Counted from the stretch's first letter, positions 18,856 to 23,767 are shown. The stretch is 64,000 nt of DNA from an uncultured bacterium (GCA_963790795.1 CAWBPO010000001.1:396073-460072), one strand, 5' to 3'. Notes: generated by a model from the letters alone, not told the origin. Translations and numbers: made by a program.

Positions 18856-19722
18856 ATGACAGTAAAGGTAGTAACCGACAGCGGAGCCGATATTCCGAAG
18901 GAAATCATGGAGGAATTGGGAATTAAGACTGTTCCTTATCTCGTCCAGTTTGGTGGTGAGACACGCCGGGATAGAGTTGACATCACACCAGAGGAGATTT
19001 ATCAACGGCTGGAAGAATCACTTAAAGAAGGGCCCCAACTAACAACTTCCGCTCCTTTTCCAAAAGATTTTATTGATATTTACCAAGAATGTGGAGCAGA
19101 TGGAATTATTTCAATTCATCTTACGGGAAAACACAGCGCTACTTATGACTCAGCTCTTAATGCCAAAGCAATAGTTGAAGAAGAAAAGAAATGCCAATAC
19201 CACATTGAGGTGATTGATTCTCGGTTAATAGTGATGGGAATGGGCTTTTTGGCGATTTTAGCTGCTGAATTAGCTAAAGAAGGGAAGAGTTTAAAGGAAA
19301 TTGTCAAAGCAGTGGAAGATGCTATTCCTAAGATTCATCTTTTGTGTGTTTTAGACTCTCTAAAATATGTTGAAAAAGGAGGAAGATTAGGGAAAGTTGC
19401 TCTTCGAGCTGCTCAAGCCGCGACTAGTATGCTTAACTTAAAAGCTCTTTTAACTCTAAAAAAAGGGGAAATTTCTTTTGCTGGAGTTGTCAGACCAAAC
19501 AGAAAAAAAGAGAGGCTAATGGAATTTATCAGTAGCTTTACCAGAGTAAAGGAAGCGGCAGTGGAATATACTGCAGCTAAAGACAAGGGAGAGGCCGAGG
19601 ATTTGCTTGAAACGATAAATCATCTCTTTCCGGGAGTTCCTCTTTATTTGTCTCAAATTAGTTCAGTTATCGGCGTTCATTCGGGCCCCGGCGCTTTAGT
19701 AGTCGCTCTCAGAGAAGAATAA
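18856..19722 (+). CDS. DegV-family fatty-acid-binding protein
   Basis: 288 aa; VKVVTDSGADIP start, TTSAP, SSVIGVHSGPGAL C-terminal pattern; GGAGGTG RBS upstream. Confidence 0.85.
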   Translation: MTVKVVTDSGADIPKEIMEELGIKTVPYLVQFGGETRRDRVDITPEEIYQRLEESLKEGPQLTTSAPFPKDFIDIYQECGADGIISIHLTGKHSATYDSALNAKAIVEEEKKCQYHIEVIDSRLIVMGMGFLAILAAELAKEGKSLKEIVKAVEDAIPKIHLLCVLDSLKYVEKGGRLGKVALRAAQAATSMLNLKALLTLKKGEISFAGVVRPNRKKERLMEFISSFTRVKEAAVEYTAAKDKGEAEDLLETINHLFPGVPLYLSQISSVIGVHSGPGALVVALREE

Positions 19723-19755
19723 GGGGCTCAAAAGAATAGAACCATCAAAGCGTAT

Positions 19756-19795
19756 AGCCGCCCGAGTAGGATAAAACCCAAACGGCGGCTTTTTA
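19756..19795 (+). terminator. Terminator after degV
   Basis: AGCCGCC ... GGCGGCT stem (large loop) followed by TTTTT; abuts left inverted repeat. Confidence 0.5.
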
Positions 19796-19809
19796 TTGTG
19801 CGACATTAA
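19793..19809. repeat. Left copy of perfect 17-bp inverted repeat TTATTGTGCGACATTAA
   Basis: Exact reverse complement found at 21848-21864. Confidence 0.9.
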
Positions 19810-19912
19810 TAGGGAACAAGGGCAAAATAGGGAAGAGGGTAGTTTTATACTATTGAAGATGTAACTAGGCTAAAAAGGCCTATTTTGGCCTAAAAATAAG
19901 GGGGGAATAGGG

Positions 19913-20404
19913 CTATTTTATAAGGTGTTCCAATACAGCCTCAGCAACAGGAATCCACTTGGGAATCCTGTTTTTTTTGCTTTTGTACTGCTGGGCTGTT
20001 TTCTGGATAGTTATTAGCCGCTTGAACAAGTCTTTAGGCCACTGACTGAGAGCTTTGCCTTTGTTTTGGTAAAGAATTCCAATTGCTTCAGACCATAATT
20101 CAAAATCTTTCTTTTTATGTCCAGAAAGAGGATATTTTTCAAAAAACTTAACAATTTTATTATAAAGTTCATCAATGTTTTGAACAGAATATCTCAATTG
20201 GGTTCCAGTGATATAGTGCAGCCGGCCGCATTCCAAGACATCTTTGACTTTTTTCAGCAAATCCTCCTTATCAACAGAGCCGACAATGACAAACTGCGCT
20301 TTCCAGCAGTAATATGTGGGAGAGTTGGTTCTTTTGTGCTTAACATCTCTGCGGAACTGCAGGTCAAAACAGCCGGTTTCATTGACTATTTTGGTTATAT
20401 TCAT
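19913..20404 (-). CDS. LAGLIDADG-like (single-motif, I-CreI-size) homing-endonuclease-family protein
   Basis: 163 aa; degenerate N-terminal motif ITKIVNETGCF (compare LAGxxDGEGCF); FFEKYPLSGHKKKDFELW resembles the conserved core; 5 nt downstream of the recombinase gene. Confidence 0.5.
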   Translation of the reverse strand: MNITKIVNETGCFDLQFRRDVKHKRTNSPTYYCWKAQFVIVGSVDKEDLLKKVKDVLECGRLHYITGTQLRYSVQNIDELYNKIVKFFEKYPLSGHKKKDFELWSEAIGILYQNKGKALSQWPKDLFKRLITIQKTAQQYKSKKNRIPKWIPVAEAVLEHLIK

Positions 20405-20409
20405 AATTA

Positions 20410-21357
20410 TTAATTTTTAATACCATGGTATTTTCGGTGTATTTCTCTCAATTGAGGTCTTGTGACGTGAGTGTAAATCTGGGTTGTAGCAATATTTCGA
20501 TGTCCCAAGAATTCCTGGACTATTCTGATATCAACTCCTTTATTTAAAAGATCAGTAGCAAAGCTGTGGCGCAAAACATGGGGAGTGGTAGTAATCGGAC
20601 AGCCAGCCATTAAAGCATATTTTTTCACTGAGCTTTCAATTGCCCGGGCGCTTAGCCTTCCGCCAGCTTGTTTTTTTGGGCCTTTGTAGTTTATAAACAA
20701 AGCTTTTTCTTTGTCTTTGCGAGTTTCTAAATATTTTTTGAGCCAACTCAAAGCTCTTTCTGAAAAGTATATTGTACGAGGGTGGCTTCCTTTGCCAATA
20801 ATGCCCAATTCTAAATCTTTCTTGTCTTTTATATTAGTGAATTGTTCTCGATTTAAAGCCACTAATTCAGCTATTCTTAATCCGGCAGAGAAAAAACTTT
20901 CCAAAATAGCCCTGTTTCTAAGTCCGGTTCTAGTTTTTATATTTGGAGTTGATAAAAGCTTTTTAACCTGATCCAAATCAAGGAACTTTATAGACCTTTC
21001 TTTTTCTTTTATCAGTTTTATCTTTCCAGCGGGCAAAGAAAGTATGTCGCGGTCTGCAAAGAAATTTAACAAATTCCTTACGACAATCAAATAATAGTTC
21101 TGAGTAGATCTTTTTATTGGTTCTTTAGTGGTTCTATTGAATGACTGCGATAGGAAAATCCTATATTTTCTTATATGTTCTTCAGTTAATTCGTGGGGGA
21201 GCAGTTTGCCTAAATTATTACTTTCCAGCCAGCGAGAGAACTTAGCCAGAGATTTGCCATAAGTTTCCTGACTTTTATTGCTTAATCCTTTTTCTATGTC
21301 TAAATATTCTTTAAAATCCTCAATGTGGCTGATTATGGGTTGATTGTCTTTTTTCAT
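20410..21357 (-). CDS. Tyrosine site-specific recombinase (XerC/XerD/integrase family)
   Basis: 315 aa; N-terminal SAM-like core-binding domain; catalytic R (GLRIAEL), HVLRHSFAT (HxxR), LGHRNIATTQIYTHV (H...Y). Confidence 0.9.
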   Translation of the reverse strand: MKKDNQPIISHIEDFKEYLDIEKGLSNKSQETYGKSLAKFSRWLESNNLGKLLPHELTEEHIRKYRIFLSQSFNRTTKEPIKRSTQNYYLIVVRNLLNFFADRDILSLPAGKIKLIKEKERSIKFLDLDQVKKLLSTPNIKTRTGLRNRAILESFFSAGLRIAELVALNREQFTNIKDKKDLELGIIGKGSHPRTIYFSERALSWLKKYLETRKDKEKALFINYKGPKKQAGGRLSARAIESSVKKYALMAGCPITTTPHVLRHSFATDLLNKGVDIRIVQEFLGHRNIATTQIYTHVTRPQLREIHRKYHGIKN

Positions 21358-21477
21358 AGGGGCATTTCGGTTGTTATTGTATACTGCGGTAAAGCTACAT
21401 TATGCGAAGTATCCCACATTCACAATATCAGGCCCAAAAGGCCTGTCAAGTGCTCCCCTCAGCGTTTGTCTTTATAT

Positions 21478-21755
21478 AAAAAAACGAAGGGACCCACAAG
21501 AGAACAAATAAGGGGTCCCATAACTCTAATATTGACTGAATATAGGAGTTTTTGCCATCATTATGGCGAGTATATTTTAAGAAAGAGCATTTAGTGTGTT
21601 TTAAAGGAACTTTGAAATTTGGTGAAGAGAGGGATTGGGTTGCAAGTGTTTGCTCCGCCAGGATATATTAATCCTTTACATGGGAGTTTTAGGATCCAAA
21701 TCCCTCTCCTGGGAGATTCGCCTCCTCCTTGTGCTTTGAATTAAGCTAACCTCCT
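21478..21755 (-). ncRNA. Candidate non-coding transcript (about 275 nt) between a consensus promoter and an internal terminator, upstream of the recombinase gene
   Basis: No ORF despite AGGAGG motifs; 10-bp long-range stem GAGAGGGATT/AATCCCTCTC (about 21627-21711); GGGACCC-N17-GGGTCCC hairpin plus U-run at 21476-21519. Confidence 0.35.
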
Positions 21756-21761
21756 ACTTTA

Positions 21762-21790
21762 ATTATAATTTTCCACAGACATACTGTCAA
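21762..21790 (-). promoter_or_regulatory. Consensus sigma-70 promoter (minus strand)
   Basis: TTGACA (21790-21785), exactly 17-nt spacer, TATAAT (21767-21762), verified base by base. Confidence 0.65.
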
Positions 21791-21797
21791 GTGTACT

Positions 21798-21840
21798 AAA
21801 AAACAAAAACCACCAGAGTTCCCTTCTCTAGTGGCTGGTG
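21798..21840 (-). terminator. Rho-independent terminator (minus strand) after the gltX/small secreted gene unit
   Basis: CACCAGCCACTAGAG...CTCTGGTGG imperfect hairpin followed by TTTTTGTTTTTT on minus strand. Confidence 0.55.
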
Positions 21841-21847
21841 TCCAATT

Positions 21848-21864
21848 TTAATGTCGCACAATAA
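21848..21864. repeat. Right copy (reverse complement) of 17-bp inverted repeat
   Basis: TTAATGTCGCACAATAA is the exact reverse complement of 19793-19809. Confidence 0.9.
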
Positions 21865-21915
21865 TATATATTAACAAGAGATTGTCTGTAATTTGTTTTG
21901 TCAGAATTTCTTCCG

Positions 21916-22287
21916 TCATTTTATTAATTCTTTAAATTTATTCCACAGATATGACGCCCCGCTTTTTGTTTCCTGTTGCATTTCTTGTTTTTCTCCTGGA
22001 AAGCTTTCTTTAATGAATGATTTTCTTTTTTCAACTTCAGGCTTCAGCCAGTTTTTAATTTTAGAGCCAAAATGCGAAAGAAGCCAGTTCCACATTTTTT
22101 GCCAGATAGGCAGAATGTTTTCGTTCCACATTCTTTCAATTAATCCTGGCATTTGTTCTTCGCTTTCTTCAAATAATTTTTCGCCGAACTCTCCGGCTTC
22201 TTCCATGGTTTCCGGTATTTTCTGGGCGAATGAAAAATTGGGCGACAGCAGGCAAACTATTATTGAAATTACGATTATGTTTTTCAT
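21916..22287 (-). CDS. Small secreted protein, unknown function
   Basis: 123 aa; signal peptide MKNIIVISIIVCLLSPNFSFAQ; Trp/Glu-rich mature part; 1 nt after gltX stop. Confidence 0.5.
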   Translation of the reverse strand: MKNIIVISIIVCLLSPNFSFAQKIPETMEEAGEFGEKLFEESEEQMPGLIERMWNENILPIWQKMWNWLLSHFGSKIKNWLKPEVEKRKSFIKESFPGEKQEMQQETKSGASYLWNKFKELIK

Positions 22288-22288
22288 T

Positions 22289-23767
22289 TTAGAAAAGCTC
22301 TTTGGCTTCCCGTATTCTTTTTAATGTTTTTTCCTTCCCTAAAATTTCAGCTATTTCAAATGGTCCGGCTGAAGCTTCCTTGCCAGTAAGCGCCACTCTC
22401 AAGGGCCAAAGCAGCGCTCCCCTATTGTTTGTCTTTTCCGCTTCTTCCAGTAAGACGCTTTCCAGTTTTTCTTTGTTCCAATCCTCGTTTTTTATCTTAG
22501 ATAACAATTTTTCCAGCTTGTTAAGAGAATCTTTTGTTTCCTTATCAGACATCTCTTTCCATTTTAACAGATTTTTGTCAAACTCAAGCTTGTCTTTGAA
22601 GAAAAAGTCAGTCAATTCAACGATTTCTGACAGTTTCTTCAATCTTTCTTGATAAATTGAAACGATTTTAACCAAATTATCAGAATTATCTTTTTCCACT
22701 AATCCTGCTTCAAGAAGATAAGGAAGGCAGAGCTCAGTCAGTTTTTCCGGAGAGCGCTGGCGGATGTAAAAGCCGTTTAAAAAGTCCAGCCTTTTGATAT
22801 TGAAAACAGCTCCGCCTTTTTGGATTCTTTCCAAGGAAAACTCCTTAATCAGAGAAGGTAGAGAATATATTTCCCTTTCGTCTCCGGGATTCCATCCCAA
22901 AAAAGCCATAAAATTAACCAGGGATTCAGGCAGATACCCTTCTTTTCTGAATTCGGAAACTGAAGCCGCTCCCTCTCTTTTACTTAATTTTGCCCTATCT
23001 TCTCCCAGAATAAGGGGCAAATGAGCATACAAAGGCCGAGGAAAGCCCAAAGCTTCCTGAATTAAAATCTGCTTTGGAGTGTTGGAAATATGGTCTTCTC
23101 CCCTGATTACGTGGGAGATTTTCATTTCAAAATCGTCAATTATCACAGCGAAATTGTATAAAGGAGCATCCAGGTTTTTAGCAATGACCATATCCCCTAT
23201 TAAAGAGGTGTCAAATTCCAATCGGCCACGTATCAGGTCGTCAAAGCTTATCTTTTTTAGAATAACCCTGAATCTAATTATCGACGGTTTGCCTTCAGCC
23301 AGATATTTTTTAACGGTTGCTTTGTCCAAATTGGCGCATTTGCCGGAATAATGAGGAGCCAGTCCTTGTGACATTTGATATTGTCTTTCAGCTTCCAGGT
23401 CTTGTTCCGAACAAAAACAATAATAGGCCTTATCTTCGGCAATCAGTTTTTCTATATATTTTCTGTAAATATCTGTTCTTTGAGTTTGTCTGTAAGGGCC
23501 GTATTTTCCTTCAATATCCGGTCCTTCGTTCCATTCAAGGCCAAGCCATTTTAAATTTTCAATAATGTCTTGCTCAGATTCTAAAGATGAACGTTCCAGG
23601 TCAGTATCTTCAATTCTCAAAACAAAACTGCCTTCGTGTTTTTTGGAAAAGAGATAGTTGAAAAGAGCGGTTCTGGCCAAACCAAGGTGCAGGTATCCTG
23701 TCGGCGAGGGCGCAATTCTCGTTCTCACTTCGCCTGGCTTGATAAACTTAAATTCTTCGCTGGTCAT
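22289..23767 (-). CDS. gltX: Glutamate--tRNA ligase
   Basis: 492 aa; RIAPSPTGYLHLG (HIGH-type) and KLSKR (KMSKS-type) motifs. Confidence 0.95.
   Translation of the reverse strand: MTSEEFKFIKPGEVRTRIAPSPTGYLHLGLARTALFNYLFSKKHEGSFVLRIEDTDLERSSLESEQDIIENLKWLGLEWNEGPDIEGKYGPYRQTQRTDIYRKYIEKLIAEDKAYYCFCSEQDLEAERQYQMSQGLAPHYSGKCANLDKATVKKYLAEGKPSIIRFRVILKKISFDDLIRGRLEFDTSLIGDMVIAKNLDAPLYNFAVIIDDFEMKISHVIRGEDHISNTPKQILIQEALGFPRPLYAHLPLILGEDRAKLSKREGAASVSEFRKEGYLPESLVNFMAFLGWNPGDEREIYSLPSLIKEFSLERIQKGGAVFNIKRLDFLNGFYIRQRSPEKLTELCLPYLLEAGLVEKDNSDNLVKIVSIYQERLKKLSEIVELTDFFFKDKLEFDKNLLKWKEMSDKETKDSLNKLEKLLSKIKNEDWNKEKLESVLLEEAEKTNNRGALLWPLRVALTGKEASAGPFEIAEILGKEKTLKRIREAKELF

Follow-up and report, generated by a model that had tools for sequence, protein, structure and literature searches.

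Does the DNA between gltX and the gene for a Xer-type tyrosine recombinase (xer) in an uncultured bacterium specify an RNA of its own, and, if it does, is that RNA a partner of the recombinase? The locus that raises these questions lies in a 64-kb window, by which we mean the whole stretch of DNA that was analysed (64,000 nucleotides (nt), GCA_963790795.1 CAWBPO010000001.1:396073-460072); all its elements are read on the minus strand unless marked otherwise. We think it fairly probable that positions 21790 to 21478 of this window encode an independently transcribed, structured small RNA (sRNA) of ~275 nt, at present a predicted transcript, which acts in trans and represents a fast-evolving, lineage-restricted family of Nealsonbacteria/Paceibacter-like Patescibacteria, a narrow group of ultra-small bacteria. 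It very probably does not work with the recombinase: the majority of Xer loci do without it, and its complementarity to dif, the Xer recombination site, and to the isolated half-sites nearby does not exceed chance. The RNA belongs to no Rfam family; as a candidate sRNA family it is new, though of an unsurprising kind.

The transcription unit and its borders consist of the following elements, in the order of reading.

21836-21798, minus strand (hairpin 21836-21808): upstream intrinsic terminator, 11 pairs, loop AAGGGAA, then a T-run.
21790-21762, minus strand: RNA promoter TTGACA-17-TATAAT, sigma-70-type, score 12/12, the best site within 19500-23000.
21755-21478, minus strand: predicted non-coding RNA of ~275 nt, with its start placed ~7 nt past the -10 hexamer and its end inside the T-run.
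21519-21478, minus strand: RNA intrinsic terminator, GGGACCC-N17-GGGUCCC followed by UUCGUUUUUUU; the loop contains UUCUCUU.
21449-21422, minus strand: xer promoter TTGACA-16-TATTGT, 10/12 with a TG extension.

The upstream terminator closes the gltX-ORF123 operon immediately 5' of the RNA promoter, and the RNA terminator ends ~30 nt ahead of the separate promoter of xer. An earlier note on this DNA had called the consensus promoter, the weaker second promoter, the GGGACCC-N17-GGGTCCC hairpin that ends the unit with a U-run at 21478, and a stretch of ~275 nt without open reading frames (ORFs) in between; all four calls hold up. The RNA promoter is the best in 3.5 kb, no ORF of at least 30 amino acids (aa) exists on the minus strand at 21358-21915, and the single ORF of at least 20 aa is exactly 20 aa long and spans the terminator hairpin. 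A small-peptide reading was considered and rejected, as there is no conserved ORF and the sole near-cognate frame (ATT start, 22 codons) is lost in the related locus L076. The note had also remarked that no start codon follows the AGGAGG motif of the transcript; this is correct but carries no information, because the genome hardly uses Shine-Dalgarno (SD) sequences. Across the 64-kb window, SD sequences are nearly absent from gene starts (e.g., 510, 2008, 22289-23767), and the regions 5' of these starts are A/U-rich, with rare SD exceptions at 18856 (GGAGGTG) and 35932 (GGGAGG). The evidence supports a structured unit that is transcribed discretely, apart from the recombinase mRNA, that contains no ORF and that is bounded by a strong promoter and a terminator of its own; the transcript itself is a prediction. 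Judged by its sequence, the unit is a self-contained module, insulated by the upstream terminator and running from a consensus promoter to an intrinsic terminator that precedes the xer promoter.

The predicted RNA folds into a series of elements.

21754-21712, minus strand: 5' extension hairpin (GGAGGUU...GAAUCUCC), carrying the AGGAGG and AAGGAGGAGG boxes.
21710-21696, minus strand: purine-rich 5' strand of helix P1, AGGAGAGGGAUUUGG, found in the minimum-free-energy and centroid folds, in the helix table and by RNAalifold.
21695-21640, minus strand: variable domain closed by P1, with hairpins AGGAU/AUCCU and GCAA/UUGC and an anti-SD-like ACUCC.
21639-21625, minus strand: pyrimidine-rich 3' strand of P1, CCCAAUCCCUCUCUU, with standard pairs in 108/112 cells over 8 sequences.
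21611-21603, minus strand: CU box AGUUCCUUU, single-stranded, a candidate seed; family consensus AGYUCCUUU.
21570-21554, minus strand: CUCG anchor and hairpin H (GCCAU-AAUG-AUGGC), paired in 39/40 cells.
21550-21522, minus strand: second 3' hairpin (AACUC...GAGUU), variable in relatives, and the site of an insertion resembling a miniature inverted-repeat transposable element (MITE) in the related locus L023.

The folding energy of the whole RNA is modestly better than that of shuffled sequences (z = -2.3). In both minimum-free-energy and centroid folds, P1 is formed by AGGAGAGGGAUU.GG (21710-21696) and CC.AAUCCCUCUCUU (21639-21625), so that the long-range stem, which the earlier note had given as 10 bp, is real and consists of 12+2 pairs; likewise, the arms of the small AGGAT/ATCCT hairpin stand as described, but its loop is UAAUAU and not AUAUUA. 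The domain enclosed by P1 measures 57 nt in the window and 60-190 nt in relatives, and differs in length and sequence between subfamilies. An alternative fold, suggested by RNAalifold for the window together with L076, pairs the 5' GGAGG-type boxes with the 3' CU boxes. The CU box is unpaired in minimum-free-energy folds of members of subfamilies B and D (defined below), and in subfamily A, to which the window belongs, the 5' boxes may, in the folding models, mask it.

The same 5' boxes contribute to the abundance of GGA triplets in the window RNA. The count of about eight in the first 130 nt, given in the earlier note, is far above the 2.5 expected and is reached by none of 2000 shuffled sequences (0/2000), but it is not conserved in the family: the whole RNA has 9 in the window, and only 1-2 in L081, L077 and L023. 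On these sequences, GGA richness is thus a feature of the subfamily of the window and L076, not a family trait. Most of the triplets sit in the 5' strands of helices P0 and P1, and their abundance reflects purine-rich helix strands and the extra 5' hairpin, which is confined to some subfamilies (it is found in A, C and the B member L082, and missing in most of B and in D). Sponges of the CsrB/RsmZ type are marked by many conserved GGA in loops; with 1-2 GGA in L081, L077 and L023, this family does not show that pattern.

Homologues of the RNA were sought in 40 loci fetched via the recombinase protein (GTDB genomes) and 15 fetched via its close protein relatives. Direct nhmmer and blastn searches with the RNA against the first 40 xer loci gave no matches; homologues were first recognised by their architecture, upon reading the gaps upstream of xer, and then confirmed within subfamilies by nhmmer. 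The layout of the window recurs, at the same slot upstream of xer, in L004 (Ca. Paceibacter normanii) and L023, and among the close protein relatives intact units are found in L076 (the nearest of them, with a Xer that is 91% identical), L077, L081, L082 and L085. The shared order is upstream terminator, TTGACA/TATAAT promoter, long closing helix, CU box, small hairpin and terminator, then the xer promoter and dif. The relatives have a near-consensus promoter in the equivalent place (TTGACA, a spacer of 16-18 nt, a TATAAT-like -10), some of the spacers with a TGTTGRAAA-like stretch. The AGYUCCUUU box is found in 8/8 full-length homologues at the same relative position, between P1 and H. The RNA terminator is kept in every homologue with a different stem sequence each time and a loop that contains CUCU. 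The single-stranded AGYUCCUUU box, the CUCG anchor of H and the CUCU-containing terminator loop are therefore the invariants of the whole family.

By nhmmer, the units fall into four subfamilies: A, the window and L076; B, L077, L081 and L082; C, L085 and L079; and D, L004, L023 and alleles. Within A, the RNAs of the window and L076 match at E = 1e-38. The upstream terminator and the RNA unit are conserved as a pair in subfamilies A, B and D, and the homologues of this terminator show compensatory changes in L004 (3385-3425), L023 (405-435), L076, L077 and L081. From one RNA subfamily to another, its hairpin has changed less than the body of the RNA, and no similar hairpin was found in those RNA-less relatives that were read; for these two reasons, it may belong to the RNA module and not to the gltX operon.

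The distribution of the unit is patchy. Of ~37 distinct xer loci whose upstream DNA could be read, 8 have the complete unit, 3 have a decayed one and the others (~25) have none. The reduced forms include L079, with an internal deletion, and L088/L089, where the terminator is all that remains; L083, L084, L087 and L090 have no RNA unit in the slot, and ARAGORN finds no tRNA in the equivalent slot of L083. A shorter unit of ~150 nt occupies the same slot in L080 (2709-2860). It is closed by a purine/pyrimidine helix of 14 bp without a mismatch, GAAGAAGGAGAAAA/UUUUCUCCUUCUUC, and has an ACCUCCUUUUCC loop and a terminator, with no CU box and no H hairpin, and may be a reduced relative of the RNA. 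A MITE-like repeat (…GATGAAACTAAAGTTTCATCTTCACCCTTCGCTATCGCTCGGGTA) is inserted in RNA hairpins of L023 (640-700) and L085 (~370-410 and 470-525); it is missing from L050 and L061, alleles that are near-identical apart from it, and related copies occur in L083 (3000-3070) and in flanks of L077, L005 and L045/L074.

Several searches looked for the RNA farther afield. A composite signature (CU box, CTYG-anchored 5-bp hairpin and T-run, written as a regular expression) hits only these loci in 1.31 Mb scanned, a uniqueness that is partly circular since the signature was drawn from the same sequences. A metagenome scan with the pattern CCCAAYCYYTCTC-N12-18-AGTTCCTT returned 35 stretches, 5 of them real, all alleles of the L023 type. 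Pattern scans of viral contigs and BLAST searches of phages and plasmids gave no RNA homologues.

That the unit is maintained is indicated by the comparison of the window with L076. Their RNAs are 82% identical (228/278 columns), and four-fold degenerate sites in the neighbouring genes of the same genome pair (xer, LAGLIDADG, ORF123 and gltX) are only 56% identical (142/255); within the subfamily of the window, the unit is thus, by sequence comparison, under purifying selection. The comparison of folds between homologous loci that the earlier note had recommended bears out a conserved structure. In the RNAalifold consensus of the window and L076, P1, two inner hairpins, H and the terminator are kept, with compensatory changes in P1 and the terminator. 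Across subfamilies MAFFT mis-registers the helices and yields no structure-consistent alignment, so that helices were tabulated by hand in place of formal pair counting. In the eight hand-aligned sequences, P1 has standard pairs in 108/112 cells, with 2-3 pair types at several positions, and H is paired in 39/40, with up to 4 pair types per position (GCCAU/AUGGC, GCCAA/UUGGC, GCCUC/GAGGC, GCUGC/GCAGC and CGGCA/UGCCG).

A covariance model made from the window and L076 only ranked the L082 RNA first (25 bits, E ~0.002) and the L085 RNA at E ~0.025. The link between subfamilies rests mainly on position and orientation, on the shared promoter and 5' end (AAARURGGAG) and on the ordered set of elements.

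Some observations weigh against a single functional, trans-acting family. Sequence profiles are not significant across subfamilies (B to D, E ~0.05; A to the others, nothing), and the matches of the covariance model are interleaved with likely false positives, such as one inside gltX of L090 (E = 0.024). P1 is a purine/pyrimidine helix that pairs in several registers, and the helix alignments are hand-made. The RNA is patchy, decays (L079, L088) and tolerates MITE-like insertions (L023, L085), and is for these reasons dispensable. Finally, an RNAduplex scan of 49 start regions of the window gave only AU-rich duplexes and no outlier.

Known RNA families offer no home for this transcript, as the earlier note had surmised from signatures of conserved RNAs. 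Rfam 15 has no match at the RNA in the window, either at the gathering threshold or at E up to 10 (the only hit is a tRNA elsewhere); the best sub-threshold scores in the region are 18-20 bits, compared to gathering scores of 40-176, and belong to eukaryotic small nucleolar RNAs and similar models. Nothing was found by Rfam at the RNA position in L004 or in 8 homologous loci, and a literature search for such an RNA in Patescibacteria returned nothing relevant.

The unit does have the properties expected of trans-acting sRNAs, namely its own promoter, an intrinsic terminator and the lack of coding capacity, all present in the window and all homologues, together with a conserved unpaired candidate seed (AGYUCCUUU). 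The closest analogy is with RsaE/RoxS of Firmicutes and the streptococcal csRNAs, trans-acting RNAs whose C/U-rich seeds pair with Shine-Dalgarno-like purine tracts. They, too, have their own promoter and Rho-independent terminator, and their structured body carries a pyrimidine-rich box, conserved and unpaired, that resembles the anti-SD end of 16S rRNA. In contrast to them, the RNA described here is 2-3 times longer and has a large, variable domain closed by P1, shares no sequence or covariance-model similarity with them, and occurs in a host that hardly uses SD sequences. The resemblance to sRNAs with C/U-rich seeds may therefore indicate, by analogy, a mode of action and not membership.

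Our best guess is that the RNA would act in trans as a riboregulator. Because the target scan is uninformative, this seed mechanism is drawn from anatomy alone. The structured 5' domain closed by P1 would serve as a scaffold, and the seed, or interaction surface for purine-rich mRNA sites or for a protein, would be the conserved unpaired CU-rich box, with its likeness to the CCUCCUUU end of 16S rRNA; the CUCU terminator loop is possibly a second seed. In the subfamily of the window, the extra 5' GGAGG boxes could mask the seed (self-masking). The location beside xer and dif would be fortuitous, the intergenic slot there, near the terminus, being a permissive one.

What surrounds the unit is needed for weighing the other explanations, and consists of the following.

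22287-21916, minus strand: 123-aa ORF that follows gltX, with no Pfam or NCBIfam match.
21864-21848, minus strand, and 19793-19809, plus strand: left and right copies of a 17-bp repeat, TTATTGTGCGACATTAA, a perfect inverted repeat and isolated Xer-arm-like half-site.
21410-21383, minus strand: 28-bp dif-like site ACTTCGCATAATGTAGCTTTACCGCAGT, inside the xer leader, just 3' of the xer promoter.
21357-20410, minus strand: Xer-like tyrosine recombinase of 315 aa (Pfam Phage_integrase, E = 1e-37; SAM-like N-terminal domain).
20404-19913, minus strand: free-standing LAGLIDADG homing-endonuclease gene, between xer and the downstream half-site.

The earlier note had taken the RNA to be encoded by an element, a view that the neighbourhood contradicts. 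Gene order murG-gltX-small ORF-xer is conserved in dozens of relatives, and the recombinase is, on sequence and synteny, the chromosomal Xer. Its best NCBIfam matches are XerC, XerD and XerA, all under their equivalog cut-offs. A dif-like site, ACTTCGCATAA-TGTAGC-TTTACCGCAGT (two arms of ~11 bp and a 6-bp centre), lies upstream of xer in more than 25 relatives, in which the spacing from the xer -35 to the dif core is fixed at 43-46 nt; the promoter and dif are conserved in relatives with and without the RNA. The site has CGCATAATGTA in common with the dif of E. coli. A Xer-type recombinase and a 28-bp dif, the components of a Xer/dif dimer resolution system, are thus both present, with the protein below equivalog cut-offs, and the arrangement points to a single-recombinase Xer system, in which the enzyme's own binding site could autoregulate xer. 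It resembles XerS/difSL and XerH/difH, where a 28-bp dif-like site with near-palindromic arms also lies directly upstream of a single xer; in distinction to these, the protein scores best with XerC/D/A models and well below the XerS cut-off, dif is in the transcribed leader, and extra isolated half-sites flank the gene.

The 17-bp repeat is the reverse complement of a dif arm, GTCGCACAAT being the left arm of dif in relatives of the L013 and L026 types. A copy of the half-site lies just downstream of xer (or of xer and LAGLIDADG), on the opposite strand, in ~25 relatives (L004-L026, L076-L087), L077 and L081 have 2-3 copies of the motif TATTGTGCGACAT, and the extra upstream copy is found in the clade of the window only. 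Since the half-site is conserved beside a chromosomal xer, it is not the boundary of a mobile element. An element bounded by the 17-bp inverted repeat was accordingly rejected on synteny and on the conservation of the motif beside xer in relatives. The isolated half-sites recall the XerD-only sites in the B. subtilis terminus. The LAGLIDADG gene is variable, being found in some relatives only, in two tandem copies in L077, and missing in others with the same flanks. The ORF after gltX is conserved in position in most relatives (100-150 aa), with a conserved C-terminus, …W.KFKELIK. An inverted repeat GGGGAG/CUCCCCU brackets the xer promoter and leader, with both halves in only 8/37 loci. The surrounding locus is an ordinary, neatly organised single-Xer/dif arrangement with extra half-sites.

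The other explanations of the unit, as a functionless relic, a cis-acting leader, a Xer-linked RNA or a divergent housekeeping RNA, are each less likely than a trans-acting sRNA. The first of them holds that the unit is a decaying relic of a mobile insertion, or of one integrated by Xer in the manner of integrative mobile elements exploiting Xer (IMEX), near dif, in which promoter-like sequence occurs by chance. We consider this unlikely. It would agree with the patchy occurrence in close relatives, the deletion in L079, the remnant in L088/L089, and the MITE-like insertions of L023 and L085, as well as with the position next to a selfish LAGLIDADG gene in a terminus-proximal region and with the Xer-arm-like half-site on the far side in several lineages. 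Decay of a functionless sequence does not account, however, for an identity between the window and L076 well above that at neutral sites, for the compensatory changes that preserve P1, H and the terminator, or for the near-consensus promoter retained in all eight lineages. There are also no copies on the viral contigs, phage records and plasmids that were searched. An IMEX or dif-module reading was rejected for want of a second full dif site flanking the unit, which lies upstream of the xer promoter and not at the dif crossover site.

Rather more improbable is that the segment belongs to the xer mRNA as a long leader acting in cis, riboswitch-like or an attenuator, and makes no RNA of its own. 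It shares the strand of xer and lies immediately upstream of that gene, its terminator could be conditional, and a domain closed by P1 resembles the layout of an aptamer. Yet the promoter of xer itself stands between this terminator and the gene, at a fixed distance from dif in RNA-less relatives as well; the domain varies between 57 and 190 nt with little shared sequence and no conserved core, unlike ligand-binding aptamers; and a strong GC-rich stem of 7-8 bp with T7 is kept in all homologues. The possibility that the earlier note had reserved against its own proposal, a mere long 5' untranslated region of xer with no structure conserved in relatives, is disfavoured by the conserved structure and by the separate, conserved xer promoter that intervenes.

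A functional tie of the RNA to Xer and dif, as a guide, decoy or regulator, for example via hairpin H, we regard as highly improbable. The unit always lies within ~70-150 nt of the xer promoter and dif. The region of H, ACUCGCCAUAAUGAUGGC, resembles dif, ACTTCGCATAATGTAGC, over the left arm and centre; in the window the two read ATAC-TCGCCATAATG and ATACTTCG-CATAATG. Furthermore, in subfamily D the loop of H is CACAAUG, the dif of the same loci is ACAATG or CACAAT, and the T/C difference tracks the dif type. The complementarity to the 17-bp repeat and its surroundings that the earlier note had suggested looking for was examined in 8 species, with each RNA compared to its own dif site and half-site motif, and is at chance level. 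The longest identical or complementary runs between the RNA and dif or half-site are 5-8 nt, and 77-300 of 300 shuffled sequences equal them; the best local alignments between RNA and dif are not above shuffles either (72/200, 101/200 and 60/200 do as well). In 3/8 species the best alignment lands on H, with scores at chance level, and the exact runs weighed for this reading (6-8 nt) are likewise at chance.

The distribution is no more favourable, as dif and half-sites occur with no RNA at ~25 of 37 related Xer loci, and as a predicted pairing partner for the CU region xer comes near the bottom, at rank 46/49. Xer-type tyrosine recombinases recognise DNA via protein contacts. A literature search found no RNA-guided tyrosine recombinase. 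The absence of the RNA from most Xer relatives, the chance-level scores and this lack of precedent are the reasons for which a Xer-linked function is rated low. In its specific form, that H copies the left arm and centre of its own dif, co-varies with it, and that the RNA modulates, titrates or directs the single Xer recombinase, or access to dif, at the replication terminus, the proposal has a very slight chance of being right; if true, this Xer-associated RNA would be without precedent as an RNA cofactor for a tyrosine recombinase. Most likely, the RNA adjoins Xer by position only, and nothing suggests guiding.

The comparison with guide or bridge RNAs, which the earlier note had invited, fares no better. 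Like the bridge RNA or seekRNA of IS110/IS1111, the RNA is a structured non-coding transcript in the range of 150-300 nt, beside a recombinase gene and with a strong promoter. Here, however, the enzyme is a Xer-type tyrosine recombinase (Phage_integrase and SAM-like domains), not a DEDD (RuvC-like)/Tnp enzyme; the RNA is not within a mobile element, judging by synteny, by the chromosomal half-site and by the searches of viral, phage and plasmid sequences; none of its loops is complementary to the recombination site, whether dif or half-site, in the 8 species; and it does not co-occur with the recombinase, being dispensable for most family members. None of the four defining features of bridge RNAs that were tested is thus found. 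The negative is worth stating, since a recombinase gene next to a structured RNA makes the bridge or guide parallel tempting, and in this case the parallel fails. The Rcd RNA of ColE1 cer is another small RNA physically tied to a Xer site. Rcd is ~70-80 nt long and is transcribed from within cer, by a promoter active in plasmid dimers alone; the RNA described here differs in having a constitutive-looking consensus promoter ~350 nt upstream of dif and in ending before the xer promoter.

A highly divergent 6S, SRP, RNase P or tmRNA, or a CsrB-like GGA sponge, missed by the models, is barely tenable: the strong promoter, from which abundance would be expected, the long closing helix and the GGA enrichment of the window copy are in its favour, and housekeeping RNAs of Patescibacteria (candidate phyla radiation) are often divergent, but Rfam gives no match to E 10 in the window and none for the 8 homologous loci, absence or decay in many close relatives is incompatible with an essential RNA, the variable core and the 130-nt 3' tail with conserved boxes fit none of these architectures, and the GGA triplets lie in helix strands and number just 1-2 in L077 and L081.

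The trans-acting sRNA thus stands as the favoured explanation of the unit. The genomes of Patescibacteria are tiny and leave very little room for non-coding DNA, and hardly any regulatory RNAs are known from them. A strongly promoted, structurally conserved family outside Rfam would be among the few candidate riboregulators in this huge, uncultured group. It would also be a handy marker of fast RNA evolution, in which the helices and a 9-nt box outlast a body that has become undetectable by sequence. The family is of interest to RNA biologists of uncultured lineages, and the Xer/dif locus with its extra half-sites is notable separately.

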